IMG/VR virus record: IMGVR_UViG_2671181100_000008
Span: 1 to 19,547 of that record
Origin: a virus
Lineage: Duplodnaviria > Heunggongvirae > Uroviricota > Caudoviricetes
Direction: 5' to 3' (one strand)
DNA: 19,547 nucleotides
In this document: one piece after another, positions 1 through 18,515 of the stretch
Position numbering within the stretch: position 1 is the first letter of the stretch
How the letters are laid out: each line of letters opens with the position of its first letter
The notes under the pieces: generated by a model
What the model saw: the letters and a program-made list of their open reading frames with translations, nothing else
Databases searched by the model: none
Told to the model about the DNA's origin: nothing
Program-made: the position numbers and the translations under genes

Positions 1-411
1 ATGCCTGCCCCCGTCGTCCTGATCCTTGCGGCCGGGCGTGGAGAGCGCTTTCTCGCCTCCGGGGGAAATACCCATAAGTGTATCGGCTGGCGTCAGTCCC
101 CGGAGGTTGCGCCTTATCGCTGGCCATTTGAAGAAAACGGGAGAACTTTCGACCTTGCGATTGAACCGCAGATTACGACTAATGATCTGCGTCTGATGTT
201 GAGGCTGGCTCTTGCCGGCGGAGGAATAACAATTGCCACTCAGGAAACTTTCAGGCCATATATTGAAAGCGGTAAGCTTGTATCGCTGCTTGATGACTTT
301 CTTCCACAATTTCCGGGCTTCTATCTGTATTTCCCACAGCGTCGCAATATTGCACCAAAGCTCCGCGCCCTGATTGACTACGTCAAAGAATGGCGGCAGC
401 AATTGGCTTAA
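1..411 (+). CDS. LysR-family transcriptional regulator, C-terminal fragment (5' end lies outside window)
   Basis: ORF open from base 1 in frame 1, stop TAA 409-411; translation resembles the C-terminal substrate-binding region of LysR-type regulators; GC-rich host-like composition contrasting with the AT-rich DNA that follows. Confidence 0.6.
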   Translation: MPAPVVLILAAGRGERFLASGGNTHKCIGWRQSPEVAPYRWPFEENGRTFDLAIEPQITTNDLRLMLRLALAGGGITIATQETFRPYIESGKLVSLLDDFLPQFPGFYLYFPQRRNIAPKLRALIDYVKEWRQQLA

Positions 412-535
412 ATGTCTGCACCTGCACTGCCTGATGTCAGAACAGTATTTTGATGAATTGCCAAGGTTACAATGGCACAAATACGGCACAGGAGGAAACG
501 TGGTGTATTTAAATATGGGGTAACTCTTTGATTTT

Positions 536-554
536 AATGGTGCGATAATAGGAG
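536..554. repeat. att core-like repeat: imperfect copy (one-base deletion) of the tRNA-Thr 3' end found at 12397-12416
   Basis: aatggtgcgataataggag at 536-554 versus aatggtgccgataataggag at 12397-12416, same orientation; proposed left boundary of the integrative element. Confidence 0.5.
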
Positions 555-613
555 CAAATCATAAAAACCAACCAATTGATTTATATGAATAAAAAAATTA
601 AAACATTATTAGG

Positions 614-633
614 TACCCCCAAAAGTACCCCCA
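614..633. repeat. Tandem TACCCCCA motif pair (possible arm-type recombinase binding sites), left end of element
   Basis: tacccccaaaagtaccccca at 614-633 matches tacccccataagtaccccca at 12265-12284 at 19 of 20 positions, same orientation, each just inside one end of the element. Confidence 0.4.
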
Positions 634-849
634 GATTTTCTTGTTGCCATCTAAATTGTTTAAAAAACATTCTATTGATGTTGATACCACAATTTAAGAA
701 CTGCCTTGAAGCATATCAAGTTAGCTAGACGTCAAAATGGCACTCTGGGAATTTGTGTTTTAGGCCCAACCTTAGTGATGTTTGCCGTACAGCTCCCTTT
801 ATGGTCATCCTATGGTAAAGTTAAGCTCCCTTCGAAAGGAGACCCCCAA

Positions 850-1977
850 ATGACGATAACAGCCTATTCTAGAAAATTTAAGCGTGAACTGGATGCTAAG
901 CAGTTGGAAAACCTTTTCGAACGTAGCAACTCAGATCCTTCTTTAAGTTTTAGAGATTTTGTTAAAGAGGATGTTGAATGCCCGGCATGCAATGTTTCTG
1001 GTGGTTATTACGTTTCGGAAGGAAGATCGCTCAGTAACGGCAAAGTTGTAAAGCAAGCACACTTTGCATTTCGAGACAATCTAGGTAAAGACTCTCACCT
1101 CCCATTTTGTGATTTTTATACTGGAGATGATAAGTTGAACGTTGTTTCAAATGAAGGCCGAATTGATTTTATGCGCTCGGGTTCTGAAGCGACACGCTTA
1201 ATAGGTCTTATGGTCTGCGCGGGAATTCAGGAGAAGATTTTTACGCAAGAAGATATACGTAACATGCGCCAATGGTTCTTAGATTTAAGAGAAAAAGGCA
1301 CTTTTACATTTAATTTAAGCCCTCACATAATTTACCTTGCAAAGGCCTCATTGATTAGATACAAGAGAAACTATGATAATTATGTTGTCGATCTCAGCGC
1401 CACAAACAAAAGTTGGTTCGACATCAATGAGGAAGTATATCAATCCCTTTATTTCAAGTACCCTCAATTCTATCTAAACCGTAATGAGAATCCTGAACTT
1501 TGGAATGTAAGGCTTAAATCAGTAGTCAAAAAAGCAAGAACTATAGTAATTAAAGACTCTGGAACATCAACATTTGACAGATCAATTCTCAACGAAAAAT
1601 ATGAGATAGCTACTCAAATGGCAAGACTGATTCGAGACTACCACCCTCGACTCCGTATGATTATTAGTTACACACCAACATCTATCAAAGCAAACAACCC
1701 ACTCATGGCTTTATCTGCATTATTATTACATGTTTCCGATTGGAATATTCAGGAAAGTTGTAAAAAAATCCAAGCAATTTTAGCAGTTGAGAAAGTTGAC
1801 GATAATTCTGCAGGAAACATTATTGGATTAAACCCATTCATTCACCATAGCGCTTGGATTCTTGTTAAAGCTTTAAACGACTTACATTCTAATTTAGACA
1901 AAGAAATTGATTTTGATAAAGCATTCAACGAAGAAAAAGAGAGGCTCATGAAAATTTACTATCCAAATGGTCAATAA
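850..1977 (+). CDS. Hypothetical protein (375 aa), putative partner of the downstream SIR2-like protein
   Basis: ATG at 850 preceded by AAGGAG (836-841) with 8-nt spacing; stop TAA 1975-1977; the ORF-track start at 706 is a TTG without an RBS. AT-rich. No domain recognisable by eye; one CPAC motif. Confidence 0.7.
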   Translation: MTITAYSRKFKRELDAKQLENLFERSNSDPSLSFRDFVKEDVECPACNVSGGYYVSEGRSLSNGKVVKQAHFAFRDNLGKDSHLPFCDFYTGDDKLNVVSNEGRIDFMRSGSEATRLIGLMVCAGIQEKIFTQEDIRNMRQWFLDLREKGTFTFNLSPHIIYLAKASLIRYKRNYDNYVVDLSATNKSWFDINEEVYQSLYFKYPQFYLNRNENPELWNVRLKSVVKKARTIVIKDSGTSTFDRSILNEKYEIATQMARLIRDYHPRLRMIISYTPTSIKANNPLMALSALLLHVSDWNIQESCKKIQAILAVEKVDDNSAGNIIGLNPFIHHSAWILVKALNDLHSNLDKEIDFDKAFNEEKERLMKIYYPNGQ

Positions 1978-2068
1978 CAAGTAAATTCTTATCTCTACAG
2001 ATAAATACATACTTGAGCTGTGTTCTAACAAATTTTAATGATTACCACTAATATATCTCGGGGGTCAA

Positions 2069-3568
2069 ATGAATATAACGGATTTTCTAAAAGGCTACAG
2101 AAACCATCCAATATTATTTGTTGGAGCAGGTTTCAGCATGAGATACTTATCAATTTCTTATAGCTGGCCGGCACTCTTAGAGAAAATTAGTATTGACCTG
2201 ACAAACTCTAATGAACTATATAAAGATCTTGTCAGAGAAAACAGTAATAAAGATGGTATTATAGACCTTCCAAAAGTGGCAACGCAATTAGAGCAAATAT
2301 TTGATGCAACACTTAAAGCAGATAGGAATGGAAAGTTCAAAAATATCAATGACTTATACTACAGCTCGGAAGATACCTCCTCAAATATTAGCAGATTTAA
2401 AATCTATCTTTCACAGTTAGTGAATATCACAGATTTAAAATTAGGAGTTCAAGATGAAATATCTGAATTAGTAAAAGCCTCCAAAAATATTGCCTCTGTG
2501 ATTACAACAAACTATGATAATTTTATCGAAAGTGCAATTGGTTATAACCCTGTAATTGGGAATGATATACTTTTAAGCAATCCTTATGGTTCTGTTTATA
2601 AAATTCACGGATGCGTTAGCAAACCAGAATCCATAATAATAACTGGTGATGACTATGTTCATTTTGATAAAAAATATGAGTTGATTCGTGCTCAACTCCT
2701 ATCCTTATTTATACATAACCCGATTATATTTATGGGGTATAGAATAGGTGACCCTAATATTAAAAAAGTATTAAAAACAATATTTTCATACATACCACCT
2801 CGTTCTAAAATTGCAGAAAAAATAAAAAACAACTTCCTTCTGATTGAAAGAGAAGAAGGCATTGATAATTTAAACGTTGTCTCTCACGATCTCGAAGTAG
2901 AAGATGCTGGGTTAATTAGCATTAATAAAATCGTTACAGATAACTTCTCAGACATATATAAAGAACTTGCTCAACTGCACTTACCAGTTTCGGTAATGGA
3001 TATACGCAGAGCAGAGAGTGTCTTTGGTAAAATAAAGGAAGGCGGAGACATAAAAGTAAAACTTGTTGGGGATTTGGACACGCTCAGAAATGATGAACTT
3101 GTTCTAGCCGTCGGTTCTGTTAACTCTATAAAAATACACATGCAAACACCTCAGGAGATGATGGAAAACTATTTTGATCTAATTTCAAATCAGGAGTCGC
3201 ATGTTGTCGAGTTGCTTGACAAGTTCACCATCAATAAAAGATCATATTTCCCAGCTTATGCTTTTCATAAATTCAGTCCAGGTGTTAAATGCTTAACATC
3301 ATTAATGAAAAATCAAAAAAGATTAATAGCGTCAAACTATGCTAGGTTACCCAAGAATCAAAGAATAGTAGAACACACCATTGAAGATATTTACGCTAAA
3401 CATTCAGATATTGATAGCAAATTACAAAATATTATTTTCTTCAATGCTCATGATGGACATATATCCTTGGAAGATTTAGAAAAACATGTCCGAGAATTTA
3501 AGGACAAGTCTCATACTGATTATCGCAAACTTTTAGCATTGTATGATTACCTCGCACACAATGTATAA
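2069..3568 (+). CDS. SIR2-like domain protein (499 aa): N-terminal SIR2_2-type putative NADase domain, C-terminal half unassigned
   Basis: Motifs seen in translation: ILFVGAGFS (res 15-23), ITTNYD (145-150, Asn148 codon 2510-2512), KIHGC (His180 codon 2606-2608), FMGYRIGD. Same strand as and 91 bp downstream of the 375-aa gene; AT-rich. Confidence 0.8.
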   Translation: MNITDFLKGYRNHPILFVGAGFSMRYLSISYSWPALLEKISIDLTNSNELYKDLVRENSNKDGIIDLPKVATQLEQIFDATLKADRNGKFKNINDLYYSSEDTSSNISRFKIYLSQLVNITDLKLGVQDEISELVKASKNIASVITTNYDNFIESAIGYNPVIGNDILLSNPYGSVYKIHGCVSKPESIIITGDDYVHFDKKYELIRAQLLSLFIHNPIIFMGYRIGDPNIKKVLKTIFSYIPPRSKIAEKIKNNFLLIEREEGIDNLNVVSHDLEVEDAGLISINKIVTDNFSDIYKELAQLHLPVSVMDIRRAESVFGKIKEGGDIKVKLVGDLDTLRNDELVLAVGSVNSIKIHMQTPQEMMENYFDLISNQESHVVELLDKFTINKRSYFPAYAFHKFSPGVKCLTSLMKNQKRLIASNYARLPKNQRIVEHTIEDIYAKHSDIDSKLQNIIFFNAHDGHISLEDLEKHVREFKDKSHTDYRKLLALYDYLAHNV

Positions 3569-3694
3569 TTATATACATTATCATTGTGATTATAGTTAGC
3601 AAAACTGCAACTGATGGTTTTATACGATTACTAGTTGCAGCCGCAGTTTACAGATCACATCAACTGTAACTTAGAGCGTTTAGAGCCAAAAATT

Positions 3695-3715
3695 CCCGCT
3701 GGTATAGCCAGCGGG
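3695..3715. terminator. GC-rich hairpin between convergent operons, candidate bidirectional terminator
   Basis: cccgctgg (3695-3702) pairs with ccagcggg (3708-3715) around a short loop; an A-run lies before it and gttttg after it on the plus strand, so a T-run follows on either strand. Confidence 0.4.
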
Positions 3716-4011
3716 TGACAGGTTTTGACTGATGCAACCAACGAGCTGTACCTGAAGTTTTCTAAAGGGGGAGAGGTTGTCACTTTCCCCCTGGTTTTCC
3801 CTAGTAAGGCATAACAAACCATAACAGGCTGACACCTGCGCTGCTTCGCATCAGGACTAACAAAAGCTAACCGCCGGGCTCAACAAAGCTCAACGCAAGC
3901 CCTTTACACTTCTGCTCTAGCTGCTGTTCGCAGGCGTCAGGATCCGTTAGGTTGGGTTGACACTTTTCCCAGTTTCTCGCGAAAAAGTGTCAAGTTTGAG
4001 GGCTGGGGGGT

Positions 4012-4509
4012 TTACAGTTTTTCGCCGTCCAGCAGGCAGAGTGACATTAAACCAGTTTTGTTCCAGTCATCCAGCGTATCGGGGTGCATTGTGGCAACGT
4101 AAGCCAGCTCAGAACGAAGAAACCGTAAAGCGCCTGCTGCACGGTCTTTGCCATAGAAGCTGTGGGTTTCTTCATCCGGCCGGAAGAGAATCAGCAATTG
4201 TTCATCGGACTCGTGCTGAACATCAAAACCCAGCTCAGCGGCTGCTGCCTCTATTCGCTGGCCAGCATTAATATCAGCCGGCAGCTCTTTCCCGCCGTCA
4301 TGCCCCCATACCCACGCGGCGGCCTGCGCCCACGTCATTGCATTGTGATGATCACCAGCACCAGCACCAGCAGAATTTTGCTTCGCCTGTGTTGCTTCAA
4401 CATCCACTTTATCGCCTGATAGCACAATCTCACCACGTGCTATCCAGCCGTAAACTGTTTGTCGGCTAACGCCCATATGCCTGGCGTAGGCTGATTTACT
4501 TAACAGCAT
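4012..4509 (-). CDS. HTH DNA-binding protein (165 aa), possibly terminase-small-subunit-like or packaging-redirecting
   Basis: ATG at 4509 with GGAGGG RBS upstream on the minus strand; N-terminus MLLSKSAYARHMGVSRQTVYGWIARGEI is a typical helix-turn-helix; last gene of the minus-strand operon. Function is inference. Confidence 0.55.
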   Translation of the reverse strand: MLLSKSAYARHMGVSRQTVYGWIARGEIVLSGDKVDVEATQAKQNSAGAGAGDHHNAMTWAQAAAWVWGHDGGKELPADINAGQRIEAAAAELGFDVQHESDEQLLILFRPDEETHSFYGKDRAAGALRFLRSELAYVATMHPDTLDDWNKTGLMSLCLLDGEKL

Positions 4510-4543
4510 CGTGTGTTTCCCTCCGGGCAGAAAAAAGCCGCCA

Positions 4544-5338
4544 TCAGGCGGCCTGTTTCCCATCTTCATCATCTGCTTTACCCTGTCGGGAATTAATTTT
4601 TTCCATACCATCAATGTACTCGGACAGATTCGCCAGCCCGGAGACTCGAGGAGCCACATCGCGAGGGTCGTCATTGCTTCCAAATACCAGATTTGCATAC
4701 CATGTGCGAACAGCGATGATTTGCTGCAGGTTGCGGTTAATGGCTTTTACCAGGTTAGAAACAGATTTGATAACGGCTCCGTTATCTGTGGCGATACGGG
4801 CAAAAGTCAGTCGCTCCAGCTGAGAATCTGTTACGCCTGAGCAAATGGCGTTACCTCGTAGCAGGGCGTCACATAAATCAGTCTGATTCCCGGCATACAT
4901 TGCTACCATCAGCTTTTCTTTCGCAGCTCCATCCAGCGAGCGAAATACATTCCGTAGCTCACTATCTCGCATAAATCCGACAACATCACCCTCGGCCAAC
5001 GGAGCAACTGGGGCCAGTTTGGTCTTAAGATAATTGAGAATATTTTCAGCTTGTTCGCTGATCATCGCCGTACTTCTAGTGAAAGCCGTGAGTGTGTCTC
5101 TATTTGCCGCATCTCTGGCCCGGCGGTTTTTTGCTGCTTCGTTTAAATCCGGATCATTGCGGATAACCTCTACGGCATCGGCTTCCGCCTCAGCTAACAT
5201 TGCCACGGCCCGCAGATCACCAAAAATATTCGTCATCCCTTTAAAAAGAATCGCCATCTGCTCATTAGGCGCAACCACTTCAGAAACGTTATCAGTGATA
5301 GCAATGCTTCTTTGCCCAATTTTAATTTCGTAACTCAC
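4544..5338 (-). CDS. Hypothetical satellite/phage protein (264 aa), GTG start
   Basis: GTG at 5338 preceded by GGAGGT; no in-frame ATG upstream before a stop; start overlaps the stop of the upstream small gene (GTGA overlap at 5335-5338). Confidence 0.6.
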   Translation of the reverse strand: MSYEIKIGQRSIAITDNVSEVVAPNEQMAILFKGMTNIFGDLRAVAMLAEAEADAVEVIRNDPDLNEAAKNRRARDAANRDTLTAFTRSTAMISEQAENILNYLKTKLAPVAPLAEGDVVGFMRDSELRNVFRSLDGAAKEKLMVAMYAGNQTDLCDALLRGNAICSGVTDSQLERLTFARIATDNGAVIKSVSNLVKAINRNLQQIIAVRTWYANLVFGSNDDPRDVAPRVSGLANLSEYIDGMEKINSRQGKADDEDGKQAA

Positions 5339-5508
5339 TGGCTTACCTCCATTCTGGATAGCCCAACATCAAATATTTTTCTCGCCACATCATGGATTGA
5401 TGGTGCGATACCAAACCCGGATTTCTGGCGTTCCTGCTCCTGGATGGCTTTTAATGCCGCAACCTGAGCAGCGCTCAGAAGAACGGGTTTCACGTGTTCC
5501 TTTTTCAT
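5335..5508 (-). CDS. Small hypothetical protein (57 aa)
   Basis: ATG at 5508 with G-rich RBS (AAGGGGG); the longer ORF-track start at 5547 is TTG; translationally coupled to the 264-aa gene. Confidence 0.5.
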   Translation of the reverse strand: MKKEHVKPVLLSAAQVAALKAIQEQERQKSGFGIAPSIHDVARKIFDVGLSRMEVSQ

Positions 5509-5639
5509 GCTTCCCCCTTGGTTATCACATGATAAAAAACGCAACAATCACAATAATCATTGCAAGTAATGAAATGATGGTAATGAAATCGAGGGGATGC
5601 ACAACGTGAAATGAATGGATGCGTTTTAAAGAATTTGCC

Positions 5640-5890
5640 CTCAAGGTATACATGGTGTTCATAAAGGCTATAAATTGCTTATAAAACATAATATTAACCT
5701 ATGAACACCAGCCTACATTTTGGGATTTCAGGTCTACACGGTATACATCATTCTGTTTAATAAACGATCAGATGGTTAATGAGAGAATGAACACCATGTA
5801 CACCCTGTGTATACCTGAAAACAAGGTATACATGGTTTATTGCACTGATTTATATATAAATTATTCTCTCGATGTATACCATGTATACCT
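5640..5890. repeat. Iteron-like cluster of a 12-bp motif GGTATACATGGT in both orientations (putative replication origin or operator)
   Basis: Exact copies at 5645-5656 and 5825-5836 (direct), exact inverted copy at 5878-5889, degenerate copies at 5740-5751 and 5793-5804 (inverted), half-site at 5808-5816; AT-rich spacer immediately downstream of the primase gene. Confidence 0.55.
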
Positions 5891-5911
5891 TTCTCCATAT
5901 TTATCTGAACT

Positions 5912-7675
5912 TCATTCTTTATGACCGGCTACAGGATGCGTCTGAGGTAACCAGTCTTCCGCACTCTCTGAAAGTTCAACGTTGGTCACCATGCCACGGG
6001 CTCTCCGTTCCTTACGGTACTCGTGATTAAACTCCCTCATCGCGCTTTCCATCCCCTCTGCGAATTTATTCAGCGTCAGCGGCTTGTCGAAACCGTTGGC
6101 CTCCAGGAATGCCAGGTAAGCGTGATAGAGATAAATTCGCGGATAGTGAGGCGGATTGCGGTTTCCTACCATCATTCCCGCACAATCAGCCAGCCGCTCA
6201 AGATGCGCGCAGAAGGCATAAAGCGGATCCGTTTTCTGCTTCACCTCCAGTGCTTCTTCGCTGTTCCGTTGCTCCAGCAGCAGCGCCCGCGCTTTTTCCG
6301 GGTTCGCAAAGTTCGCCAGCAGCCGACGAACCACCACCGGAATTTCAGCGGATATCTTTTCTGCCAGGTCGGGATCTTTATCCTCCTCGCTGACGCGCCG
6401 GTTAAACTGGAAAATTACGCGTCGCCGGGAAACGCCGCCGGCACGTTCGGTGAAAATCATCGGCGTGTTGTTCGTGGCCACAACCACCGCCCGCAAAACG
6501 GCGGTGTACTGGTGCTCGTGTTTCGGGTCGATCTCCACGGCATCCCCGCCGGTTATCGCTTTTATCCCGGTACCCTCTCCTGAATATTTGGGCTGATCAG
6601 GAAGCGTTATCATGCTTTTCCCGACGAACTGCGCCCGCCCGCGCGCGCTGTCGAGCGCCGCCATGTTCCCGCTGGCGGTGTTATGCGCACCGGCCAGCAT
6701 CGTAGCGATATGGGTAAAGACACTTTTCCCGCTACCGCCATCACCGGTTATCTCGAGGAACAGCTGCCAGTCGTACCGGTTCGCCAGCACCATAAAGAGC
6801 GCTGCAGCGATGCGCTGCATCTTAATTGCGTCTCTATCTGATGCGTAACTTAGCCATTTATGGAAGTTCGGCGCGTGGTCGCGGAGGTTTTCGCCCGGTA
6901 CCGCTGGCGTGTAGGTCACGCCGTTATGATTGGTTAGCCAGTTGTCCTGGCTGTGTTCGGAGAAAATGCCGGTTTCCATATCGTAGACACCGTTTGCAAA
7001 GGGGATCAGGCTCCGCCGCGGCTCCCCCATCACCGGGATAACGATTTTCAGGGCGTCGATAACGTTGTTGATCGCGCGCTTGCTGAAGTTGGTTTTGTTC
7101 TCGTTGTAGATAGCCACCATTTCGCGGCTCAGCTCGAGCATAGACGTTTTCTCCCAAATGCCGGCGCGGTAGACGTACACGCCCTCGCTGTTTTCGTTGA
7201 TTGCAATGCCGGTGTAACGCGCGGCCAGTATGAGCGCCTTTTCGTTATCAGCCAGGTCGCGGAGGTTTACATCCGTCAGCGGTTTGCCGATCACCATACT
7301 TTTGCCGGCTTCCGCATCGGCTTTGAGGCGCGGCAGCTGCGGCGTCCAGTCCTCCAGAAGCTGATAACCTTCAGAGTAGAATTGCGCGCGCTCCACGCCG
7401 GCCACCGCCAGCTTTGTCGCGAGAATGGTTATCTGCCGTTCGGTCAGATGCCCGCCGCGGCAAACCCGGGCATAGAGCCGGCCATCATCAACAATGCGGA
7501 TATTCTCCAGCTCCGCCAGCTGCTTTTTATCCAGCACAACCGGCGGCACCGTGTCGCCAATCGGGTTCATTTCCTGCCATGCTTTGGCGAACGTCCAGGC
7601 ATCGGCGCCGGCAAAGATGATTGACTCCTCCATGAGATCCGCCGGCTGCTTTTTAAGGTTTGGTGCATTCTTCAT
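5912..7675 (-). CDS. Primase/helicase-like replication protein (P4 alpha / D5-type C-terminal NTPase family), 587 aa
   Basis: Walker A-like GDGGSGKS in translation; size and context typical of satellite/PICI pri-rep genes; ATG at 7675 overlaps the stop of the upstream gene (ATGA). Confidence 0.8.
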   Translation of the reverse strand: MKNAPNLKKQPADLMEESIIFAGADAWTFAKAWQEMNPIGDTVPPVVLDKKQLAELENIRIVDDGRLYARVCRGGHLTERQITILATKLAVAGVERAQFYSEGYQLLEDWTPQLPRLKADAEAGKSMVIGKPLTDVNLRDLADNEKALILAARYTGIAINENSEGVYVYRAGIWEKTSMLELSREMVAIYNENKTNFSKRAINNVIDALKIVIPVMGEPRRSLIPFANGVYDMETGIFSEHSQDNWLTNHNGVTYTPAVPGENLRDHAPNFHKWLSYASDRDAIKMQRIAAALFMVLANRYDWQLFLEITGDGGSGKSVFTHIATMLAGAHNTASGNMAALDSARGRAQFVGKSMITLPDQPKYSGEGTGIKAITGGDAVEIDPKHEHQYTAVLRAVVVATNNTPMIFTERAGGVSRRRVIFQFNRRVSEEDKDPDLAEKISAEIPVVVRRLLANFANPEKARALLLEQRNSEEALEVKQKTDPLYAFCAHLERLADCAGMMVGNRNPPHYPRIYLYHAYLAFLEANGFDKPLTLNKFAEGMESAMREFNHEYRKERRARGMVTNVELSESAEDWLPQTHPVAGHKE

Positions 7676-7986
7676 TTTCTGTTCCCTCGCTCCCTGATGA
7701 TTTCCCGCATGACACGAATTCGCTCGATGCCCTGTACCCGCATAATCCGATCGATATCTTTTTCGCCGGCGACCGGCGCGGAAGAAACAAATTCAAATTC
7801 CCGCACCAGTCTTTCTGGCGTGCAAAAACACGGTGAGCTGTACCCCTCGCGGCAATATGTCACTCTGTCGAATCGGTAACTTTCGATAATTACGATGCTG
7901 CCCCGGCTGTCCTTCCATTTATCGCCCGGCCTGATTTCAGGGTGAGCGCGGCCACCAGCAGCTAAGCCGGAAATTTTAATCGTCAT
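7672..7986 (-). CDS. Hypothetical protein (104 aa), replication operon
   Basis: ATG at 7986 with GAGGT RBS; stop overlaps the primase start. Confidence 0.55.
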   Translation of the reverse strand: MTIKISGLAAGGRAHPEIRPGDKWKDSRGSIVIIESYRFDRVTYCREGYSSPCFCTPERLVREFEFVSSAPVAGEKDIDRIMRVQGIERIRVMREIIRERGNRK

Positions 7987-7996
7987 ATTTTTTACC

Positions 7997-8200
7997 TCAC
8001 GCCGCTGGCGGGATTACCTGATAACCAATCTTCTTCAGAAAGCGCGCGGCACTCTCCACCGTGAAAAGGATCTCGTCGTCCATAAGGGGGCGCATCGACT
8101 GCAACCCGTTCGACGTGTCCACCAGATAGCGGCCGCCGGCCGGAAAACTGAATACAGTTTTGCCATCGCTACAGCGCACCAGATTATAAATAGCGGTCAT
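7997..8200 (-). CDS. Hypothetical protein (67 aa)
   Basis: ATG at 8200 with GGGAGG RBS; ATGA overlap with the upstream gene stop. Confidence 0.5.
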   Translation of the reverse strand: MTAIYNLVRCSDGKTVFSFPAGGRYLVDTSNGLQSMRPLMDDEILFTVESAARFLKKIGYQVIPPAA

Positions 8201-8412
8201 GGTCTGACCTCCCTGACTTTCACCAGATATTCCGATGCCTGACTGACCAGGCTGTGAACCGCCGCGACACGAAAGCTTTCCATTTCATCATCCGGCGCCA
8301 GGGTGTTTATCCACATATCGAGAACGGCAAGCGCCTGACGGCTGTATTCAAGCGCCTGGCCTGCGCTGGTCGTCAGCATGGCAATGGATTCGTTTTGAGT
8401 TGGCTTTGTCAT
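8197..8412 (-). CDS. Hypothetical protein (71 aa)
   Basis: ATG at 8412; ATGA overlap with the stop of the recombinase-like gene. Confidence 0.5.
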   Translation of the reverse strand: MTKPTQNESIAMLTTSAGQALEYSRQALAVLDMWINTLAPDDEMESFRVAAVHSLVSQASEYLVKVREVRP

Positions 8413-9284
8413 GCATTCACCTCCATAGCGAGGCGTGTCTGGATAGCCGCGGCCTTGCTCCCCAGCTGGAGATAAGTCCGGGTGATTGCCGGGTTACTGT
8501 GTCCGAGCATTTCAGAGGCGACCAGCAAGCCCTGTTCGCCGCCGGCGGACATGAGATTAAAGGCGGCAATTTTGCGGCTGGAATAGGCGCTCAGGCGCAG
8601 ACGCGTGTTTACTACGCGGGTAAACCACACCATGACGTTGTGCAGTTTCTTCCAGATCGTCTGACGGCTAACGCTACCTTCCAGAGACTGGCAACGGTTA
8701 CTTTCAATCTGGCTGCGGGAAAATACCAGGTCGTCACCGATAAGATTGCGCTCCATGCGTTCCCGCAGTCGTTTGATGATGCCCGGCGGCAGCTGTTTGG
8801 TGTCGTGCTTCACTTCAGCCTTTGCCACCAGCTCAAACACAATCGCCTGTTCTTCTTCCGTCATGCCGGCGGCCAGCTCGTCGCAGCTCACGCTATCCCA
8901 GTGCATGTACCCAATGTGATCGCCAGCAAGCCGGGCAGCGTCCTTGCGCTGCTGGCGAACAATCTCGATCCCCTTCCGGGTCGCTCTGGCTTCCGCTGCT
9001 TTGGTCTGCTTCGCCACGATGATTGTTGCAATGCCGGTTTCCCAGTTGATGCAGGAGTAACGGAAGTTGCACACGTCGCTGGTACGCCAGCCGGTTACGG
9101 TCGCAATATCCCACCAGAGTAAAACCCACTCCGGCTGGGTCTGCTGGATGCGTTCGCGCAGTTTGCGCTGCTCTTCCCGTTCGTAAACGGGGGTCATGGT
9201 GCGGGTGCCTTTCGTGGTAGTGGCTTTTACCACGTTGCCGCGCAGCTCGCGGGCTTTAGCTGTCAGGGTCTGGAGGTTAAACAT
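8409..9284 (-). CDS. Tyrosine recombinase-like protein (291 aa) embedded in the replication operon
   Basis: Internal ATG at 9284 with GGGAGGT RBS (the 517-aa ORF-track extension has no support); C-terminal LGHSNPAITRTYLQ matches the tyrosine-recombinase box II pattern; candidate box I Arg in TGWRTSDV. Confidence 0.65.
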   Translation of the reverse strand: MFNLQTLTAKARELRGNVVKATTTKGTRTMTPVYEREEQRKLRERIQQTQPEWVLLWWDIATVTGWRTSDVCNFRYSCINWETGIATIIVAKQTKAAEARATRKGIEIVRQQRKDAARLAGDHIGYMHWDSVSCDELAAGMTEEEQAIVFELVAKAEVKHDTKQLPPGIIKRLRERMERNLIGDDLVFSRSQIESNRCQSLEGSVSRQTIWKKLHNVMVWFTRVVNTRLRLSAYSSRKIAAFNLMSAGGEQGLLVASEMLGHSNPAITRTYLQLGSKAAAIQTRLAMEVNA

Positions 9285-9522
9285 GGCTACCTCCCAGTTT
9301 CGCAACATCCAGTTCAAACGCGCCGCTACTGTATTGATAAAGCGAACATTCAGAGCGAATTTTGGCGGCAAAGATAAGATCCCAGCGGGAATAAAACTCG
9401 CGGGCTTCTTGCTCACTGTCGGCAACGATGCGGATAACAACGGGAGTACAGGTCCGGCCTTTCGGCGTACCGAGGAAAAGCCAGGTGAATTTGGGCAGTT
9501 TTTGGGTTGGGGTAGTAGCCAT
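9277..9522 (-). CDS. Hypothetical protein (81 aa), first gene of the replication operon
   Basis: ATG at 9522 with GGAGG RBS at 8-nt spacing; 3' end overlaps the recombinase-like start by 8 nt. Confidence 0.5.
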   Translation of the reverse strand: MATTPTQKLPKFTWLFLGTPKGRTCTPVVIRIVADSEQEAREFYSRWDLIFAAKIRSECSLYQYSSGAFELDVAKLGGSHV

Positions 9523-9724
9523 GTGGCAGCCTCCATACAGTGGTCTAGATAACCACCACCGGAAACGCCAATTTCACTGGTGGTGGACTGAGCAGGGTTG
9601 GCGTAACCGGACTGTATGGACTCCGGCGCGGATTTCTCCGCCCCCACCCAGCCCACCATAATTTTGCTAGCAGAGCGGTTTTGAACCACAACGCGTGAAA
9701 ATAGGTGAGACGGATCAACGGCAC

Positions 9725-9746
9725 AAAAAAAGACGCTTGGCGCGTC
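9725..9746 (-). terminator. Rho-independent terminator on the minus strand, downstream of alpA
   Basis: Minus strand reads GACGC-GCCAA-GCGTC followed by seven T (plus-strand A-run 9725-9731, stem 9732-9736 and 9742-9746). Confidence 0.5.
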
Positions 9747-9993
9747 ATGTGTCGCCATACAGTCATTCAGGACGCCAATCCTGACACCAGATTTTGCTGG
9801 TGCTTTTAAAGCATACCCTTCAGTTGAATAACAAGGCAAGGAGTTTTTAGGGTGAGCGAAGCCCTGCCCCAGACGGGCATAATTGTTCTTCATGGCATTA
9901 ACCTTTTTGAATTTTTTAGTGAGCTGTCGCGACGAACTTATTCTGCGAGATCTGAAGTGCAAACTCTCGCAAATTATCTCAGCTCACGGAATC

Positions 9994-10191
9994 TCAGTTC
10001 GTTTGGCTGCGTGACGATTCAATGCGCTCACTAATCCATTCATCAATTTCGCTTTCAATGAAAGCAATTGCTCGAGAACCAATTTTTATGGATGAGGGGA
10101 AACGTTGCTCAGCCATGAGTCGATAGATCCAAGCCTTGCTATAGCCGGTTCTACGCTGAACTTCAGGTAAGCGGATAAGGGATTGGGACAT
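9994..10191 (-). CDS. alpA: AlpA-family phage transcriptional regulator (65 aa)
   Basis: Translation LIRLPEVQRRTGYSKAWIYRLMAEQRFPSSIKIGSRAIAFIESEIDEWI is the characteristic AlpA HTH; ATG at 10191 with GAGAGGT RBS. Confidence 0.85.
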   Translation of the reverse strand: MSQSLIRLPEVQRRTGYSKAWIYRLMAEQRFPSSIKIGSRAIAFIESEIDEWISERIESSRSQTN

Positions 10192-10358
10192 ATATACCTC
10201 TCGAAGTCTAATGTGGTCTACGAGGTATATTTCAGCAAAAACAAGAGGGGAGTTGTGGAAGTCACAGTAAATCAGTTGGAAGCAGCTCTTCCACGGAAAC
10301 AGAAGTACGGCCAGAAGTTTTAGAACCTGTAGATCGTCTTTTTGGAAATCCTTACGGG

Positions 10359-10949
10359 CTATTTGGAAGCGTACGTGTTCAGAGCTTCATCAATTAGCAT
10401 AGTCAATGCCTTATCAGTCACATCGATGCCATCGCCATGCTCCAATATGATTCTTGAGGCACTTCTGGCAACTTCGGATTTGTTCAATTTCTTACCGCGA
10501 ACATATTTTCCACCCGCTTTTTCAAGCGCAATCGCCATACCAGCGATCAATTTCAAAGCAGTGTCTTTGCCAGCGAACTCGCCCCATACCCCAGGAACAT
10601 GTTCATTAGCATGAGCTGCATTTTCTTCCTCACAGCCATACCATACATCTTCAGCAGATAGCTCTTTGATTGCCCAGGACCAAATATCTTCAGCGTAAAA
10701 CTCAGCGTTGACAAAATTACCGCCGATATCAGTCCAAACAGTTTTCGGGCTTAGCTCTTTGTTAAGAGCCGCTTGAATGATACGAAAATAGCTACAAGCC
10801 ATGTTGTATCTTTCGGGGTCATAACTTTTATCAAATTCTCTTAAGCATGCAAAACGATACACACCGGCCATAGCCATTGCAGCCTGTTCAGCAGTGACCA
10901 CACGTTGTCGGCGAAGATGATGGGGCATGTTGAGGATGTTTTCTCGCAT
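10359..10949 (-). CDS. Hypothetical protein (196 aa) between int and alpA
   Basis: ATG at 10949 with AGGAAG RBS; no domain recognised by eye. Confidence 0.6.
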   Translation of the reverse strand: MRENILNMPHHLRRQRVVTAEQAAMAMAGVYRFACLREFDKSYDPERYNMACSYFRIIQAALNKELSPKTVWTDIGGNFVNAEFYAEDIWSWAIKELSAEDVWYGCEEENAAHANEHVPGVWGEFAGKDTALKLIAGMAIALEKAGGKYVRGKKLNKSEVARSASRIILEHGDGIDVTDKALTMLIDEALNTYASK

Positions 10950-11017
10950 AAAAGCTTCCTGCTAACGATAGTCTACAGAAGTCTACTACTGTCAATTAGC
11001 ACTGTCTATACATACAG

Positions 11018-12232
11018 TTAAGCGCTTTTCCCAAACGTTCCGTGCACTACATTTTCGCCGTTTTCCAACGCCTCCATATAGTCGGCATACCACTGGAGCA
11101 TTTCGCGGCGGCCATCCAGATACTGGGCGTGGTTGTACGTTCCTCGTATAGAGTTTTTGTCGACGTGTGCCAGTTGCGTTTCAATCCACGCGGTGTTGTA
11201 GCCCTGTTCGTGCAGGATGGTACTCATGGTGTGCCGGAAACCGTGCCCGGTGACTTTTCCGTTATAGCCAATCCGCTTGAAGACTTGGTTTATGCTGGCT
11301 TCACTCATTGTTTTCCGCGGATCGTTACGGCCTGGGAACACAAGCGGGTAATTGCCTGTTAGCTCTTGGATCTGACCAATAAGCGTAAGAGCTTGCCTGG
11401 ACAACGGCACCACATGAGGGCGACGCATTTTCATGCGTGAGGCGGGTATTTCCCAGACCGCCTTACTGATATTGATTTCATCCCAAAATGCCCCACGGAG
11501 TTCGCCGGGACGCAATCCGGTGATAATCAGCAGACGAGCAGCCAAAACTACTAACTCGCTTCCTGAATATCCTGACAACGCATTGAAGAAATCAGGCAAT
11601 TCTTTAGGTGTGAGGAAAGGAAAATGATTGGACTCGTGCCCTTGCATCGCGCTGGTGAGATCCGGGGCGGGGTTATACTCAGCTCGACCGGTAACTATTG
11701 CGTAACGGAAAACTTCCCCACAGCGCTGCCTAACTTTTCTTGCCTTTTCGGTAGCGCCGCGCCCCTCAATGCGCCGCAGCACATTCAACAGTTCAAGCGG
11801 TTTGATTTCGGCTATTGGTTTTTTGCCAATGTATGGGAACACATCTTTATTGAAGGCTTCGAGGATGTCTGAAGCATAACCAGCAGACCATTTTTTTAGT
11901 TTGCTGCTGTGCCATTCAAGGGCAATATCTTTGAAGGTGTTGTTTAGCTGAATTTCACGGGCAATCTTCTCCTCCCGTTTCGCTTCCATAGGATCGATAC
12001 CCCCAGCGATACCCCTTTTCGCTTCTTCACGTTTTGCCCGAGCATCGGCCAATGTGACTTCAGGATAGACACCCAGAGCTAACAGCTTCTCTTTGCCGGC
12101 TACACGATATTTGAGCCGCCAGTATTTGCCGCCATTAGGTTTGATAAGGAGATACAGACCGCCACCATCAGCCAGCTTGTAAGGCTTATCTTTAGGTTTA
12201 GCGGCCTCCACCTGCCGGGCGTTAAGTTTCAC
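11018..12232 (-). CDS. int: Site-specific tyrosine integrase, P4 type (404 aa), GTG start
   Basis: N-terminal arm-binding-like region (KLNARQVEAAKPKDKPYKLADGGGLYLLIKPNGGKYWRLKYR) and C-terminal catalytic region (HGFRHT, NHAQYLD); GTG at 12232 preceded by AAGGAGG and an in-frame stop; adjacent to the tRNA-derived att sequence. Confidence 0.9.
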   Translation of the reverse strand: MKLNARQVEAAKPKDKPYKLADGGGLYLLIKPNGGKYWRLKYRVAGKEKLLALGVYPEVTLADARAKREEAKRGIAGGIDPMEAKREEKIAREIQLNNTFKDIALEWHSSKLKKWSAGYASDILEAFNKDVFPYIGKKPIAEIKPLELLNVLRRIEGRGATEKARKVRQRCGEVFRYAIVTGRAEYNPAPDLTSAMQGHESNHFPFLTPKELPDFFNALSGYSGSELVVLAARLLIITGLRPGELRGAFWDEINISKAVWEIPASRMKMRRPHVVPLSRQALTLIGQIQELTGNYPLVFPGRNDPRKTMSEASINQVFKRIGYNGKVTGHGFRHTMSTILHEQGYNTAWIETQLAHVDKNSIRGTYNHAQYLDGRREMLQWYADYMEALENGENVVHGTFGKSA

Positions 12233-12296
12233 TTGGGGGTACCTCCTTTAGACCGAACAGCATATACCCCCATAAGTACCCCCAAACGACCGTAGA

Positions 12297-12381
12297 TTTC
12301 AGGGAACTGTAGTAGACGTAGAAATACCAAAAGGGGCTGTAAAGCGCAGATTATAAGGGGTTTCAGTGAACTTTAGTAGAC
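12297..12381. repeat. Two 21-bp direct repeats (12297-12317 and 12361-12381) between int and the att core
   Basis: tttcagggaactgtagtagac versus tttcagtgaactttagtagac, 19 of 21 identical; the embedded 9-mer gtagtagac recurs inverted at 10981-10989. Confidence 0.45.
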
Positions 12382-12398
12382 TTGGGGAGACGTTAGAA

Positions 12399-12444
12399 TG
12401 GTGCCGATAATAGGAGTCGAACCTACGACCTTCGCATTACGAAT
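12399..12444 (-). tRNA. Partial tRNA-Thr (anticodon CGU, thrW-like): 3' 46 nt only, from anticodon loop to CCA; serves as att site
   Basis: Minus strand reads ATTCGTAATGCGAAGGTCGTAGGTTCGACTCCTATTATCGGCACCA with a T-arm (GGTTCGACTCC), acceptor 3' strand, discriminator and CCA; the expected 5' half is absent from 12445 onward. Identity with thrW is from memory. Confidence 0.7.
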
Positions 12445-13191
12445 TATAAGAATCCGCTTCTAATTCAAAGTATTACCCCATCAACACTGTGCTCACACGT
12501 CCCACCACATCAAAACATGTAAAGCCTTGCAAGCCATTGTGAGGCCTTATGTGTCTCAGTTTTGTCCCACCTTGTATTATGACTTGCATAGCCAATGAAG
12601 ATAAACGTGACGACAAACAGCGCAGCAGTCTTCTTTTCTTTCACACTTTCCCCAATCAGCATACATACTTTCTACCATAACTGTAGTGAATGTCTGTTAT
12701 GAGCGAGCAAAAGAGATTCAATTACCGGGGAATTACTCCGACATAAGCTCTCCCAGAAACACCGGAACAGCGATTCGCATATTCTCTTCTATACTTTCAG
12801 TCTGACCGGCTGGAGATTTCATAGCAAGAAAATGGATGCGCCAAGACCTATGCGGGAAAGAGGCTGAGGAAATAATTGCCGATAGCACTGTGCCCGACGA
12901 AAAGTTAATCTGGCACGCAATGACGCGCGTCCTTGGGGCATCAGGAATCAGAGAGCCAACTTAACAACCCATTACATATTATTTAACCGGACTGTTACAT
13001 GTACAAAGTTCAATGATTAGTGATTCTGTGACGCCACATACAACCTAAGCCCCTGATATAAAACCAGTCTATGCAACACCTAAAAATCATATATGATAGG
13101 GTGATAAGTCAACGCGCAGTATAAAAATTAAGCTAAAAAATGCTTTCAGCATAGTGAATCTATTTCACACTACATAATTAAGGATGAAAAA

Positions 13192-14037
13192 ATGACTGCA
13201 CCAGTAATTAGTTTTATCAATATGAAAGGTGGGGTTGGTAAAACAACTTTATGCGTTGGGATTGCTGAGTTTTTAGCCAACCATATGGGGCGCAAGGTTC
13301 TAGTTATCGATATTGATCCTCAATTTAATGCCACTCAGTCCTTAATGGGGCATTATGATCGAGTAGAAGAATATATGACTGCCCTTCGCCCTAATAATCA
13401 AACCATTCGAAAGATTTTTGAGCTTCCAAATTCATTAATGGAAGATGAAAAGAAAGTGACACCAGAACAGGTCATTACTAAAGTTTCAGACAATCTTGAT
13501 ATTATCTTAGGTGATATAAACATTATCTTTGATACTAACCAAGAGGGTATTAGAATAAAAATGTTGCGTAAATTCATCACCGAAAATGACTTAAAAGAAA
13601 GTTACGACTATATCTTTATCGATAGCCCCCCAACAATCTCATTATTTACAGATACCGCACTCCTTGCTTCTGATTATTATCTTACTCCGGTTAAAATTGA
13701 TCACTACTCGGTGCTTGGAGCAAGCAGTTTAAATAGCGTTATAAGAAATATGCGCACACATCATGAGAAAGAAATCAAGCAAGTCGGTTACATTTATACA
13801 AACACTGATGCTGAAATGACCAATAAAACAAGGGAAATTAAAGAACAATTCGAAAACCATACTCAATTTACAAATTTTTATTTCTTTGAAAATCAATTAA
13901 CCTACGTGCGTGATTTAATGGTAGGTTATCAAGGAAATATTCCTTCTTGTTATTCAAAGTCACGCCAAGATATAGAAAAGATCTGTAACGAATTTATTAA
14001 CAGAGTGGCTCACTTGGAAGGTAACACAAATGAATAA
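13192..14037 (+). CDS. ParA/MinD-like P-loop ATPase (281 aa)
   Basis: Deviant Walker A KGGVGKTT near the N-terminus (FINMKGGVGKTTL); AAGGA RBS 7 nt before the ATG; very AT-rich. Confidence 0.8.
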   Translation: MTAPVISFINMKGGVGKTTLCVGIAEFLANHMGRKVLVIDIDPQFNATQSLMGHYDRVEEYMTALRPNNQTIRKIFELPNSLMEDEKKVTPEQVITKVSDNLDIILGDINIIFDTNQEGIRIKMLRKFITENDLKESYDYIFIDSPPTISLFTDTALLASDYYLTPVKIDHYSVLGASSLNSVIRNMRTHHEKEIKQVGYIYTNTDAEMTNKTREIKEQFENHTQFTNFYFFENQLTYVRDLMVGYQGNIPSCYSKSRQDIEKICNEFINRVAHLEGNTNE

Positions 14038-14428
14038 ACAATTAATTAAAGCGCTCAATAAAGCTAATAATATGCCCATGACCAAAGAAAACTTCTTAGG
14101 CTTGGTAATTATGTTGATTCTTTCAAAAGAGGTTTTTAGATCAAATTTTGATGTTAGTAAATTTATTAACAAAACCTTCAAAATATCTTTTTTGAATTAT
14201 GCTGTACGGTCAAGAACTTTGATGTGCGCTAAAATTTGCAGACATATTAATGAATTAAGTGAGAATGACATAAAGATGGCTTATACGCATTTCTTAAACA
14301 ACATTAACACATTAGACATTATTTTTAATGATGCAAATAAAACAAGCCAAAAATCCACATCTAAAAGCAAGCATGCTATAAGGAATTTAAATATTTGGAT
14401 TAATGCAAATAAAAAGGAAGAAGAATAA
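14030..14428 (+). CDS. Hypothetical protein (132 aa), coupled to the ParA-like gene
   Basis: ATG at 14030 overlaps the ParA-like 3' end by 8 nt; GGAAGG RBS; AT-rich, Asn/Lys-rich. Confidence 0.6.
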   Translation: MNKQLIKALNKANNMPMTKENFLGLVIMLILSKEVFRSNFDVSKFINKTFKISFLNYAVRSRTLMCAKICRHINELSENDIKMAYTHFLNNINTLDIIFNDANKTSQKSTSKSKHAIRNLNIWINANKKEEE

Positions 14429-15093
14429 TGCTCACGCAGGATCCCTTCAACATTGGAAGAGATGTAAATTATTTTAGAGCGGAGGTGCAAAAGCACCTCA
14501 GAACCACTGATGAAATAAACAAATCAGTATCAATATTTAGGCAAATAAGTCTTTGTAATACAATTTTAAGTCACAATCCTAATCTAAATCACTCTTCTTA
14601 TATAAAAGGTTTTATATATGATACCTTAAACTCCTTAATTGCCATTATAAAAAAAAGAGAACGGTATCTCCAACTGAACTTCCGCTCAATGGTGGAGCAT
14701 GTGGCCAGAATAAGCCTCAATAAGAACTACAATGGTGGGGATTTTGACCAAACTGTACGTCGTAGAGACTTTGACTTCTTAAAAGCCCAACAAGTCGATG
14801 AAGGCTGGTCTTATTTACATAATGTCTATATCAACGCCTGTTATTATGTTCACTCCTCCCCCCAAGCGAACCTAAATGTTACATCAACATTTATATCACT
14901 TATGGAGGGAGATTGTAATTCAACACAGCATAAAATGGTGAAAAAACTTCATGAGGTAGTATCGGCGCTGATGAGAATCATTATAAAGTATTATCATCAG
15001 CATATCTCAAACATTTTCTTTAGAAACAAAAAGGATTTAGAGAAAATAATGGGAAAAAGCCTTTATTCATATTATACCAGCTTAGACAATTAA
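14428..15093 (+). CDS. Hypothetical protein (221 aa), third gene of the ParA-like operon
   Basis: ATG at 14428 overlaps the upstream stop (TAATG); AAGGAAG RBS; no assignable domain. Confidence 0.6.
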   Translation: MLTQDPFNIGRDVNYFRAEVQKHLRTTDEINKSVSIFRQISLCNTILSHNPNLNHSSYIKGFIYDTLNSLIAIIKKRERYLQLNFRSMVEHVARISLNKNYNGGDFDQTVRRRDFDFLKAQQVDEGWSYLHNVYINACYYVHSSPQANLNVTSTFISLMEGDCNSTQHKMVKKLHEVVSALMRIIIKYYHQHISNIFFRNKKDLEKIMGKSLYSYYTSLDN

Positions 15094-15130
15094 TTCTCTC
15101 ATATTCATTGCGTAGAGCATAAATATCTAT

Positions 15131-15627
15131 CTAACCACCTAAAATGCCAGAAAATCTAGTTGTATACCGGTGCGAAAATATCTCGCGTTTCATCTGCCAC
15201 TGCTGCTGAATGCCCTGCCCAGCGAAACAGAGTGTTTCCTTCCCGTCTTTTGCATTGAGGTGCTCCAGCACGCTCATTAACTTTTCGCTCCCAGGACCCA
15301 GCGCGTTATCGTCGAATAGGTTAGGGCATGCTCTGACTGAAGAAGTCCCCCAGCATTACCCCGGCTTTCTGATATCGGTGTCCGTCTTTCCATATTGCAT
15401 CCAGACTCCCCGTTGCTACTGCAATGATATCCCGACTGTCCTGTGTCGGGATGAGCAGCTTCACCGACGCGCTGTTACAGTAGTACGACTCGTTCAACGC
15501 AAAGGGTATCGTGTAAAACCGATGATGACACTGCCGGCAATCAGCACTGACGTCAGCAAACGTGAGAAAGAACAGATAAGCCGAACGATTTAGGAAATGT
15601 TTGAAGAGACTGATATGTGGATGGTTT
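15131..15627 (-). pseudogene. umuC: umuC-like (Y-family translesion polymerase) C-terminal remnant, 5'-truncated and frameshifted
   Basis: Minus-strand translation gives ...HRYQKAGVMLGDFFSQ, then after a frame change ...NLFDDNA...LNAKDGKETLCFAGQGIQQQWQMKR...RYTTR, resembling the UmuC/MucB C-terminus as I recall it; no start codon, and the N-terminal three quarters are missing. Confidence 0.55.
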
Positions 15628-16023
15628 CAGTTTAAACGCCTTGAACCGTCATATTACCTAAGTACAATCCGCTGTGACTGGCAATCATTCAATACTTGCA
15701 CTATCAAAAGTGCATCAGCCAACCGCAGCACGTCTTGCATACGACCTGTCTGCGGTTTCAATCACCTCTCACCACCAGTCCCATCAATAATAATTAAACA
15801 GCGCCTAAACAAAATAAATAACAACAAGTCAACAACCTCGACAGGATGCCGATGGGATGATGAAGAGATAAGAAAGAATAACTAGTAAAGCCCTAAAACG
15901 TCAGCGTTCAGACGCGTTTTTTACTTAACCGGTAACAAATACGTTGTATCATAGCAACATAAAATGATTGTTCTAAATCAGATTAACTCCTCACTTTTGT
16001 ACAATGTCGCTTACAGGTATACC

Positions 16024-17913: not shown

Positions 17914-17935
17914 TGCAATTAATAAAATGATTATA

Positions 17936-17959
17936 GCGGCCTTACATTAGTAAGGCCGC
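17936..17959. terminator. Perfect 9-bp hairpin 23 nt after the GmrSD-like stop (putative terminator)
   Basis: gcggcctta (17936-17944), loop cattag, taaggccgc (17951-17959); no clear T-run on the plus strand, so efficiency is uncertain. Confidence 0.4.
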
Positions 17960-18277
17960 TACTCACTATTAAATCCTTTAATTTGCAACAAGAACAGCAG
18001 TGTCAGCCCTAGGTTTCGGACTTTGTACCGCTTATCTTGTCTTCAAAAATCAGCTCGCATCCTGCACAGTTCAGCGCATTACGAATCTGTAGCACCAATC
18101 TTAACTATCTGTTTTAGCAAGCATTAACCGCATTCACTAAGCTATAGTTGATGGCACAAACAGAAAGTTGATGCATGATGTTGTCATGTGTATGTCACAA
18201 ATGCGGCACAACGATCTTCAAACATGTAGCCACACATCCACAGAAGAGCACAAAGCCTTGCAATCCAGTGCAACGCT

Positions 18278-18511
18278 TTGTGTACCATAGTTTTTCCTTA
18301 TCAACTACCGCAAGTATCGATCGATGGAGGCTTGGATGTTAAATTTCATGACTTTGATCACTTGGTGCATCACGAAACTATCGAAGTGCAACTCGCTCAT
18401 GCCAACGGCGGATCTGTGCGTGGGATTTACAACCATGCTCAGTATCTAGATAAGCGCAGAGAAATGATGCAGTGGTGGGCTGATTACATCGATGGTCGTG
18501 CAGGAGTGTAA
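18278..18511 (+). pseudogene. Integrase C-terminal remnant (P4-type), 5'-truncated
   Basis: Translation ...IEVQLAHANGGSVRGIYNHAQYLDKRREMMQWWADYIDG parallels the C-terminus of the intact integrase at 11018-12232 (...IETQLAHVDKNSIRGTYNHAQYLDGRREMLQWYADYMEA); only about 45-55 residues are recognisable. Confidence 0.6.
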
Positions 18512-18515
18512 GCCA

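Follow-up and report, generated by a model that had tools for sequence, protein, structure and literature searches.

The DNA analyzed here, referred to below as the window, comprises positions 1 to 19,547 of the IMG/VR virus record IMGVR_UViG_2671181100_000008 (19,547 nucleotides) and is 100% identical to the chromosome of Escherichia coli NDM2. Near its left end lie two adjacent genes, and the question they raise is whether they form one anti-phage system. Gene 1 (850–1977, + strand) encodes an orphan protein of 375 aa and gene 2 (2069–3568, + strand) a SIR2 protein of 499 aa; a spacer of 91 bp (1978–2068, + strand) separates them, and the RefSeq annotation of NDM2 labels their products “hypothetical protein” and “SIR2 family protein”, respectively. 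An earlier interpretation, made from the letters of the DNA only (the sequence-only reading), took the pair for a new two-gene SIR2 anti-phage system. We consider it fairly probable instead that they are two functionally independent single-gene modules, a sirtuin of the PADLOC candidate family PDC-S25 and the orphan gene 1, stacked in a 3.3-kb AT-rich cassette of a satellite element. A defence-type SIR2 protein carried as satellite cargo thus survives from the earlier proposal, while the pairing and the novelty of the SIR2 protein do not. The placement that had been described was also borne out. The two co-oriented open reading frames (ORFs), 91 bp apart, sit at the integrase-distal end of a satellite recognizable by its att-like (attachment site-like) repeats, integrase, AlpA, primase, and C4/isrK RNAs, and they are more AT-rich than its core, with a G+C fraction of 0.31–0.38 over 501–3500 versus 0.50–0.59 over 4001–9500.

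Each gene was found to stand alone elsewhere. Relatives of the SIR2 gene that are 86% and 74% identical to it stand by themselves in lambdoid prophages, flanked by Q and the lysis genes, and one of 58% identity does so in a Pectobacterium island. Gene 1 was absent from 51 of 55 viral SIR2 loci, in one example of which SIR2 has an SSB-like gene on one side and DNA polymerase A on the other, and was present at only four, those with a SIR2 at least 96% identical, all four of which are the same cassette. As to conserved neighbours of SIR2, only phage replication (backbone) genes recurred, in one group of related phages. Solitary relatives of gene 1 were seen in Shewanella, Pseudomonas juntendi, Acinetobacter baumannii, and Vibrio loci and on Salmonella IncFII plasmids. 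A species-dereplicated scan yielded 72 gene 1 loci in Alpha-, Beta-, and Gammaproteobacteria and Cyanobacteria, and none of these 72 species-level loci carried a SIR2 of the PDC-S25 type within 5 kb of gene 1. The immediate neighbours of the gene 1 family were heterogeneous, and integrases, transposases, conjugation genes, and antitoxins lay nearby; no conserved neighbour was found, and only Gabija recurred (11–14 of 71 loci), in varying arrangements. Co-occurrence of the two families across divergent lineages, which we took as the operational criterion for a two-gene system, was not found, and the hand-picked loci were mutually exclusive.

The boundaries of homology coincide with the genes. 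DNA homology of gene 1 to other elements is confined to its ORF (834–1964), as is that of SIR2 (2067–3560), and homology to solitary SIR2 genes starts only at 2067. The unit of inheritance in E. coli is a 3.3-kb cargo cassette (528–3854, + strand), which recurs in E. coli 258E (8873–12345 of that locus), 94% identical in nucleotides but on another satellite backbone; homology there ends at 3854. Since the same cassette sits in a different backbone there, cargo and backbone have recombined independently, and the modules of the cassette were probably assembled by cargo shuffling. The backbone genes of 258E include a DUF927 primase, PerC, ProQ/FinO, and AntA/B. In E. coli A65EC, an IS1-mediated deletion took out gene 1 and left the SIR2 coding sequence (CDS) intact, so that this strain naturally carries a “SIR2-only” version of the cassette. 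The same IS1 insertion/deletion (4248–6650 of that locus) also removed paoABCD and a LysR pseudogene, and it ends about 200 bp upstream of the SIR2 CDS. Because each gene stands alone elsewhere, because homology breaks at the ORF ends, and because A65EC keeps SIR2 without gene 1, we conclude that the two genes are probably not one system, contrary to what had been proposed; their pairing is probably incidental, and gene 1 is unlikely to be a partner of SIR2. The sequence-only reading had named as its own refutation a match of the 375-aa protein to a known SIR2 partner family with the same architecture. No such family was found for gene 1, and an incidental pairing is a different and stronger objection than that one.

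Several observations weigh against two independent modules. In a rival explanation, gene 1 joined the PDC-S25 SIR2 only recently, as its sensor, its regulator, or an antitoxin-like partner, and the two form a genuine lineage-specific system in which both are required. The genes are co-oriented and only 91 bp apart; a scan of the spacer (1978–2068) found no terminator-like hairpin, and a consensus scan found no promoter-like site scoring at least 9/12 there, which is weak evidence either way. They are probably co-transcribed. Terminator-like sites were found 3′ of SIR2, as two G+C-rich hairpins with a T-run (3695–3715, − strand, and 3766–3792, + strand); both the cassette transcript and that of the core genes converging on it are likely to end in this region (3695–3792). 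In the variant cassette, 96% of the spacer is conserved, and the intact pair of gene 1 and SIR2 occurs in 20 of 5426 complete E. coli genomes. Between the two cassette variants, the ratio of nonsynonymous to synonymous divergence (dN/dS) is 0.11 for gene 1 and 0.12 for SIR2, indicating purifying selection on both, and synonymous divergence (dS) is similar for the two (0.14 and 0.18), as expected of joint inheritance across two backbones; a recently formed functional pair would look alike. A65EC offers only one instance of such a deletion, known from its sequence. No published experimental test of PDC-S25 was found in the literature, the family being a computational candidate, and gene 1 might itself act as a regulator or as an anti-defence factor, or be no more than neutral cargo. 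We nevertheless regard a two-gene system as improbable: outside this cassette lineage, the families co-occur at 0 of 72 gene 1 loci and 0 of the 51 other viral SIR2 loci, SIR2 relatives as close as 86% identity are solitary prophage genes, the homology breakpoints fall at the ORF ends, SIR2 outlasted the loss of gene 1 in A65EC, and the gene 1 family has no conserved neighbour anywhere. For annotation, the locus advises caution, as co-orientation and adjacency in a satellite hotspot are not enough to define a system.

The SIR2 motifs that had been reported are all present in the translation of gene 2 (VGAGFS at 18–23, TTNYD at 146–150, KIHGC at 178–182, and GYRIGD at 223–228). Pfam SIR2_2 was the sole Pfam family reported for the protein (79.6 bits against a gathering cut-off of 24.5), and the classical Sir2 Pfam family gave no match. 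In an alignment of 36 homologues spanning Proteobacteria and Firmicutes, N148 and H180 were invariant, along with about 90 further columns. SIR2_2-type “SIRim” proteins have been described as the immune clade of SIR2 (bioRxiv 10.1101/2024.09.18.613514). By sequence and by its structure model, the protein is a defence-type sirtuin of this clade, with a predicted ThsA/DSR2-like fold. The match to PADLOC model PDLC04968 (PDC-S25) was full length (E = 6.9e-140, 465.5 bits, residues 2–497 on positions 9–514 of a 517-position profile), and a second PDC-S25 model, PDLC04967, matched at E = 1.1e-51; the PHROG match was phrog_2695. Judged by these profiles, the SIR2 protein is a member of a catalogued single-gene candidate family, and the idea that it was undescribed has to be dropped. 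It shows no sequence difference that sets it apart from PDC-S25, whose relatives are solitary in prophages and islands; here, by happenstance, an unrelated orphan gene precedes it. The PDC-S25-type family is very large: over 1600 clusters were counted across the Proteobacteria and Firmicutes, with Staphylococcus, Listeria, Enterococcus, and Bacillus among the genera represented, and about 48% identity is kept between the E. coli SIR2 and its Staphylococcus, Listeria, or Bacillus relatives. The RefSeq accessions of the gene 1 and SIR2 proteins were not mentioned in the literature searched. Two candidate precedents were set aside: pFR88, the sole SIR2 of the P4 hotspot tested by Rousset et al., is a different protein, and the Streptococcus thermophilus papers concern SIR2-HerA only.

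An AlphaFold2 model of the SIR2 protein, with a predicted local distance difference test (pLDDT) score of 80, comprises a SIR2 (SIRim-type) fold (residues 1–300), an unmodelled segment (307–358), and an all-helical domain (360–499). Foldseek matched it through the SIR2 domain to ThsA, DSR2, KomC, SIR2-HerA, and Avs5 (E = 1e-9 to 1e-7), and a family profile searched against the PDB matched DSR2, ThsA, KomC, and FAM118B over the SIR2 core only. Residues 307–358 were predicted to be disordered (pLDDT <50), yet they include the family-invariant positions D311, I322, G325, G326, V330, N341, A347, and G349. Because a disordered segment holds invariant residues, the model suggests that it may become ordered on oligomerization or on binding of a ligand or trigger. 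Activation as a filament or oligomer is common in this class, and helical structures of ThsA, KomC, and Avs5 were among the Foldseek matches.

Similar to it in layout are DSR1 and DSR2, which are likewise single polypeptides: an N-terminal SIR2_2-type domain bears the catalytic Asn and His, and the C-terminal region after it is helical. Alignment of the SIR2 core with that of DSR2 gave a profile E = 2.9e-11 and a Foldseek E ~5e-9. DSR1 and DSR2 are about 1000 aa long, versus 499 aa here, and their C-terminal domain bears no detectable similarity to that of our protein; the NCBIfam model of DSR2, NF041819, scored 18.5 bits against a cut-off of 1400, over residues 144–205 only, so that the protein is not DSR2. 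For the DSR1/2 and ThsA families, phage sensing, release or assembly of the SIR2 domain, hydrolysis of nicotinamide adenine dinucleotide (NAD+), and abortive infection are established steps. By analogy, the expected action here would be the same (sensing of a phage protein, NAD+ depletion, and abortive infection), and the SIR2 protein is probably a phage-triggered NADase. The helical C-terminal domain, perhaps together with the 307–358 segment, would hold the SIR2 domain inactive; as in DSR1/2 and ThsA, a phage component would be sensed by the C-terminal helical domain, upon which the SIR2 domain would be released or assembled and would hydrolyze NAD+ by means of N148 and H180, aborting the infection as DSR1, DSR2, and ThsA do. 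Should the SIR2 protein be active alone, it would provide, to our knowledge, the first functional evidence for PDC-S25, a very widespread family of ~500-aa sirtuins, and its trigger would be a new one, the sensor domain being unlike those of DSR1/2 and ThsA.

Another rival reading is that the protein is the ThsA of a Thoeris system, or else a deacetylase sirtuin with a housekeeping role, mistaken for a stand-alone defence gene. The PADLOC ThsA1 models match it at E = 4.6e-21, B. cereus ThsA is the best Foldseek match (8btp, 6lhx, and 7uxt at the top), and the length of ThsA is similar (~480–500 aa). The match is limited, though, to the SIR2 core, residues 140–304, the ThsA models as a whole aligning only over 137–306. 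ThsA ends in an alpha/beta SLOG (or a Macro) domain, whereas residues 360–499 are predicted to be all-helical. No adjacent ThsB/TIR gene was found: gene 1 had no TIR match in Pfam, PADLOC, or NCBIfam, and the other window proteins that were scanned likewise included no TIR protein. The match to SIR2_2 without classical Sir2, together with neighbours that are satellite and prophage genes rather than housekeeping genes, argues against a deacetylase. Such a misassignment is therefore highly improbable, and the SIR2 protein is of the defence type, as the sequence-only reading had it, not a housekeeping sirtuin. The defence-type SIR2 fold is shared also with SIR2-HerA (Nezha), SPARSA (SIR2-APAZ plus short pAgo), and Avs5 (SIR2-STAND). 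The adjacent HerA/DUF87 ATPase of the first was not found here, gene 1 giving no HerA/DUF87 signal, and neither gene 1 nor the SIR2 protein showed the APAZ, Argonaute, or STAND/P-loop partner or fused domain of the other two.

Gene 1 represents an orphan family whose fold is without a match. The sequence AGGAG precedes its ATG at 850, and this start corresponds to a first methionine conserved throughout the family, the N-termini of relatives reading MxITAYS; a longer ORF from TTG-706 was considered and is unsupported, since the conserved family M1 is ATG-850. The protein matched no family in Pfam, PADLOC, or NCBIfam, and no fold match was found for its structure model, although the model is confident (pLDDT 92.6), in agreement with the earlier view that it is not TIR, HerA, pAgo, or STAND. 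Sub-threshold matches were all that the family databases gave: an M14 N-terminal domain and DUF7516 (18.7 bits, cut-off 27). It does match phrog_12525 (E = 4e-88 over residues 1–371), an uncharacterized family, and SSU5_107 of the phage-plasmid SSU5 is 34% identical; these matches give its family a name and no known function. When 1.84 billion representatives were searched exhaustively with a profile, 212 clusters were gathered, all of about 350–440 aa, with no fusion or extra domain among them. The N-terminal part is beta-rich and contains an invariant CCHC motif (C44/C47/H83/C87), the C-terminal part is helical, and invariant residues of the latter are Q133/R137/R140/W142 and G322-N323-x2-G326-x-N328-P329-F330. 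Because the CCHC pattern is invariant, the protein probably binds zinc, the motif forming a probable structural site as judged from the alignment.

The genomic context of gene 1 gives hints of its role. Relatives lie on the Salmonella Dublin plasmid and on SSU5, and the family was found in 266 plasmid records. At least 11 alphaproteobacterial loci have Gabija beside a gene 1 homologue, with clear matches to GajA (E = 7e-200) and GajB (E = 1e-250). These gene 1 and Gabija (GajA plus GajB) loci (L033, L035, L037, L038, L039, L040, L050, L054, L056, L059, and L068, around 5000–10500 in each) display three arrangements, in which one lies downstream of the other on the same strand, the two converge at 36 bp, or they are separated by ~1.7–1.9 kb. 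An OLD-like ATPase alone follows gene 1 in three further loci (L062, L072, and L084). Gene 1 travels by itself on plasmids, phage-plasmids, conjugative elements, and defence islands. For its role we consider a self-contained one in conflict, either defence or counter-defence, the most likely, with low confidence. A more specific and tentative idea sees gene 1 as the founder of a new family of single-gene conflict functions (defence against phages or plasmids, or counter-defence), with an unseen fold, a CCHC zinc site, mobile spread, and a recurrent Gabija neighbour, so that its adjacency to PDC-S25 would reflect the stacking of defence genes. A smaller possibility is that it modulates the adjoining effector, SIR2 here or Gabija elsewhere. 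A rival explanation, of fairly low probability in our estimate, is that gene 1 is no defence gene and serves its mobile element as an anti-defence, establishment/regulatory, or DNA-binding protein that merely lies beside SIR2. Its carriage by plasmids, by SSU5, and by conjugative elements would fit such a service, as would the small size of the family, its uniform length, and its lack of effector-domain fusions. No PADLOC model matches it, and no enzyme-like invariant acidic triad is evident, the invariants being Cys, His, Arg, Gln, Trp, Gly, and Asn. Whichever of these applies, gene 1 is the less predictable part of the locus, a compact and well-folded family on clinically relevant plasmids (the Salmonella Dublin virulence plasmid and SSU5-like phage-plasmids).

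The element that carries both modules is a P4-type satellite in the E. coli chromosome. Terminal repeats bracket it, and homology of IMG/VR viral contigs and of the variant cassette to the window begins at 528–533; the gene pair is therefore its att-proximal, integrase-distal cargo. The end repeat TGGTGC(C)GATAATAGGAG has copies at 538–556 and 12399–12417. The left att-like copy, TGGTGCGATAATAGGAG (538–556, no strand assigned), is an imperfect direct copy, with one indel, of 12399–12417 and marks the left end of satellite and cassette. At the right end, the att sequence (12399–12443, − strand) is a 3′ fragment of a tRNA gene (…GGTTCGACTCCTATTATCGGCACCA on the − strand); ARAGORN found no complete tRNA and Rfam made no call there, only the 3′ part being present. 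The gene in question is presumably thrW. Just inside the left end lies a 20-nt repeat, TACCCCCAAAAGTACCCCCA (614–633, + strand), with a second copy, 95% identical, just inside the right end (12265–12284); this 20-mer, TACCCCCAWAAGTACCCCCA, is kept in the 94% variant cassette and may be a recombinase arm site.

The satellite core (4012–12232, − strand) encodes, according to Pfam, Rfam, and RefSeq annotation, a helix-turn-helix protein, a D5-type primase (D5_N plus Pox_D5), a DUF4222 protein, a second recombinase, an Icd-like protein, the C4 and isrK RNAs, AlpA (Phage_AlpA), and the integrase; RefSeq also annotates an Ash pseudogene on the − strand. The integrase (11018–12232) is full length, with Phage_integrase and Arm-DNA-bind_3 domains. 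Between the Icd-like and Ash genes, Rfam placed the C4 antisense RNA (75 bits, 9576–9663, − strand) and the isrK small RNA (70.8 bits, 9726–9803, − strand). This region (9576–9803) is a P4-type immunity region, which supports the identity of the element as a satellite. No sid, psu, or delta gene was annotated or found among the ORFs scanned, dedicated Psu/Sid/Delta profiles not having been run on every ORF. The second, shorter tyrosine-recombinase-like gene (8409–9284, − strand, 291 aa) has a partial Phage_integrase match only; on one side of it is the Icd-like gene and on the other are small genes that lie upstream of the primase.

Beyond 12443 a second island follows, and the islands give the appearance of elements integrated in tandem at a single att site, putatively of the tRNA type. 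This island holds a full-length type IV methyl-directed restriction enzyme (16024–17913, + strand), a GmrSD-like protein with DUF262, which matched PADLOC mREase_IV at 1439 bits over positions 1–629 of 629. Upstream of it is an AT-rich (31–36% GC) operon of three genes (13192–15093, + strand) with overlapping start and stop codons, encoding a ParA-like ATPase of 281 aa and two unknown proteins of 132 and 221 aa; its sole PADLOC match is a weak P-loop match to PDC-M28B. Pseudogene remnants at 15131–15593 and 18377–18511 (a umuC-like DUF4113 fragment, a DinI fragment, and an integrase fragment) mark decayed ends of further elements. A lambdoid prophage starts beyond 18516, with a glycine-rich tail-fibre-like protein.

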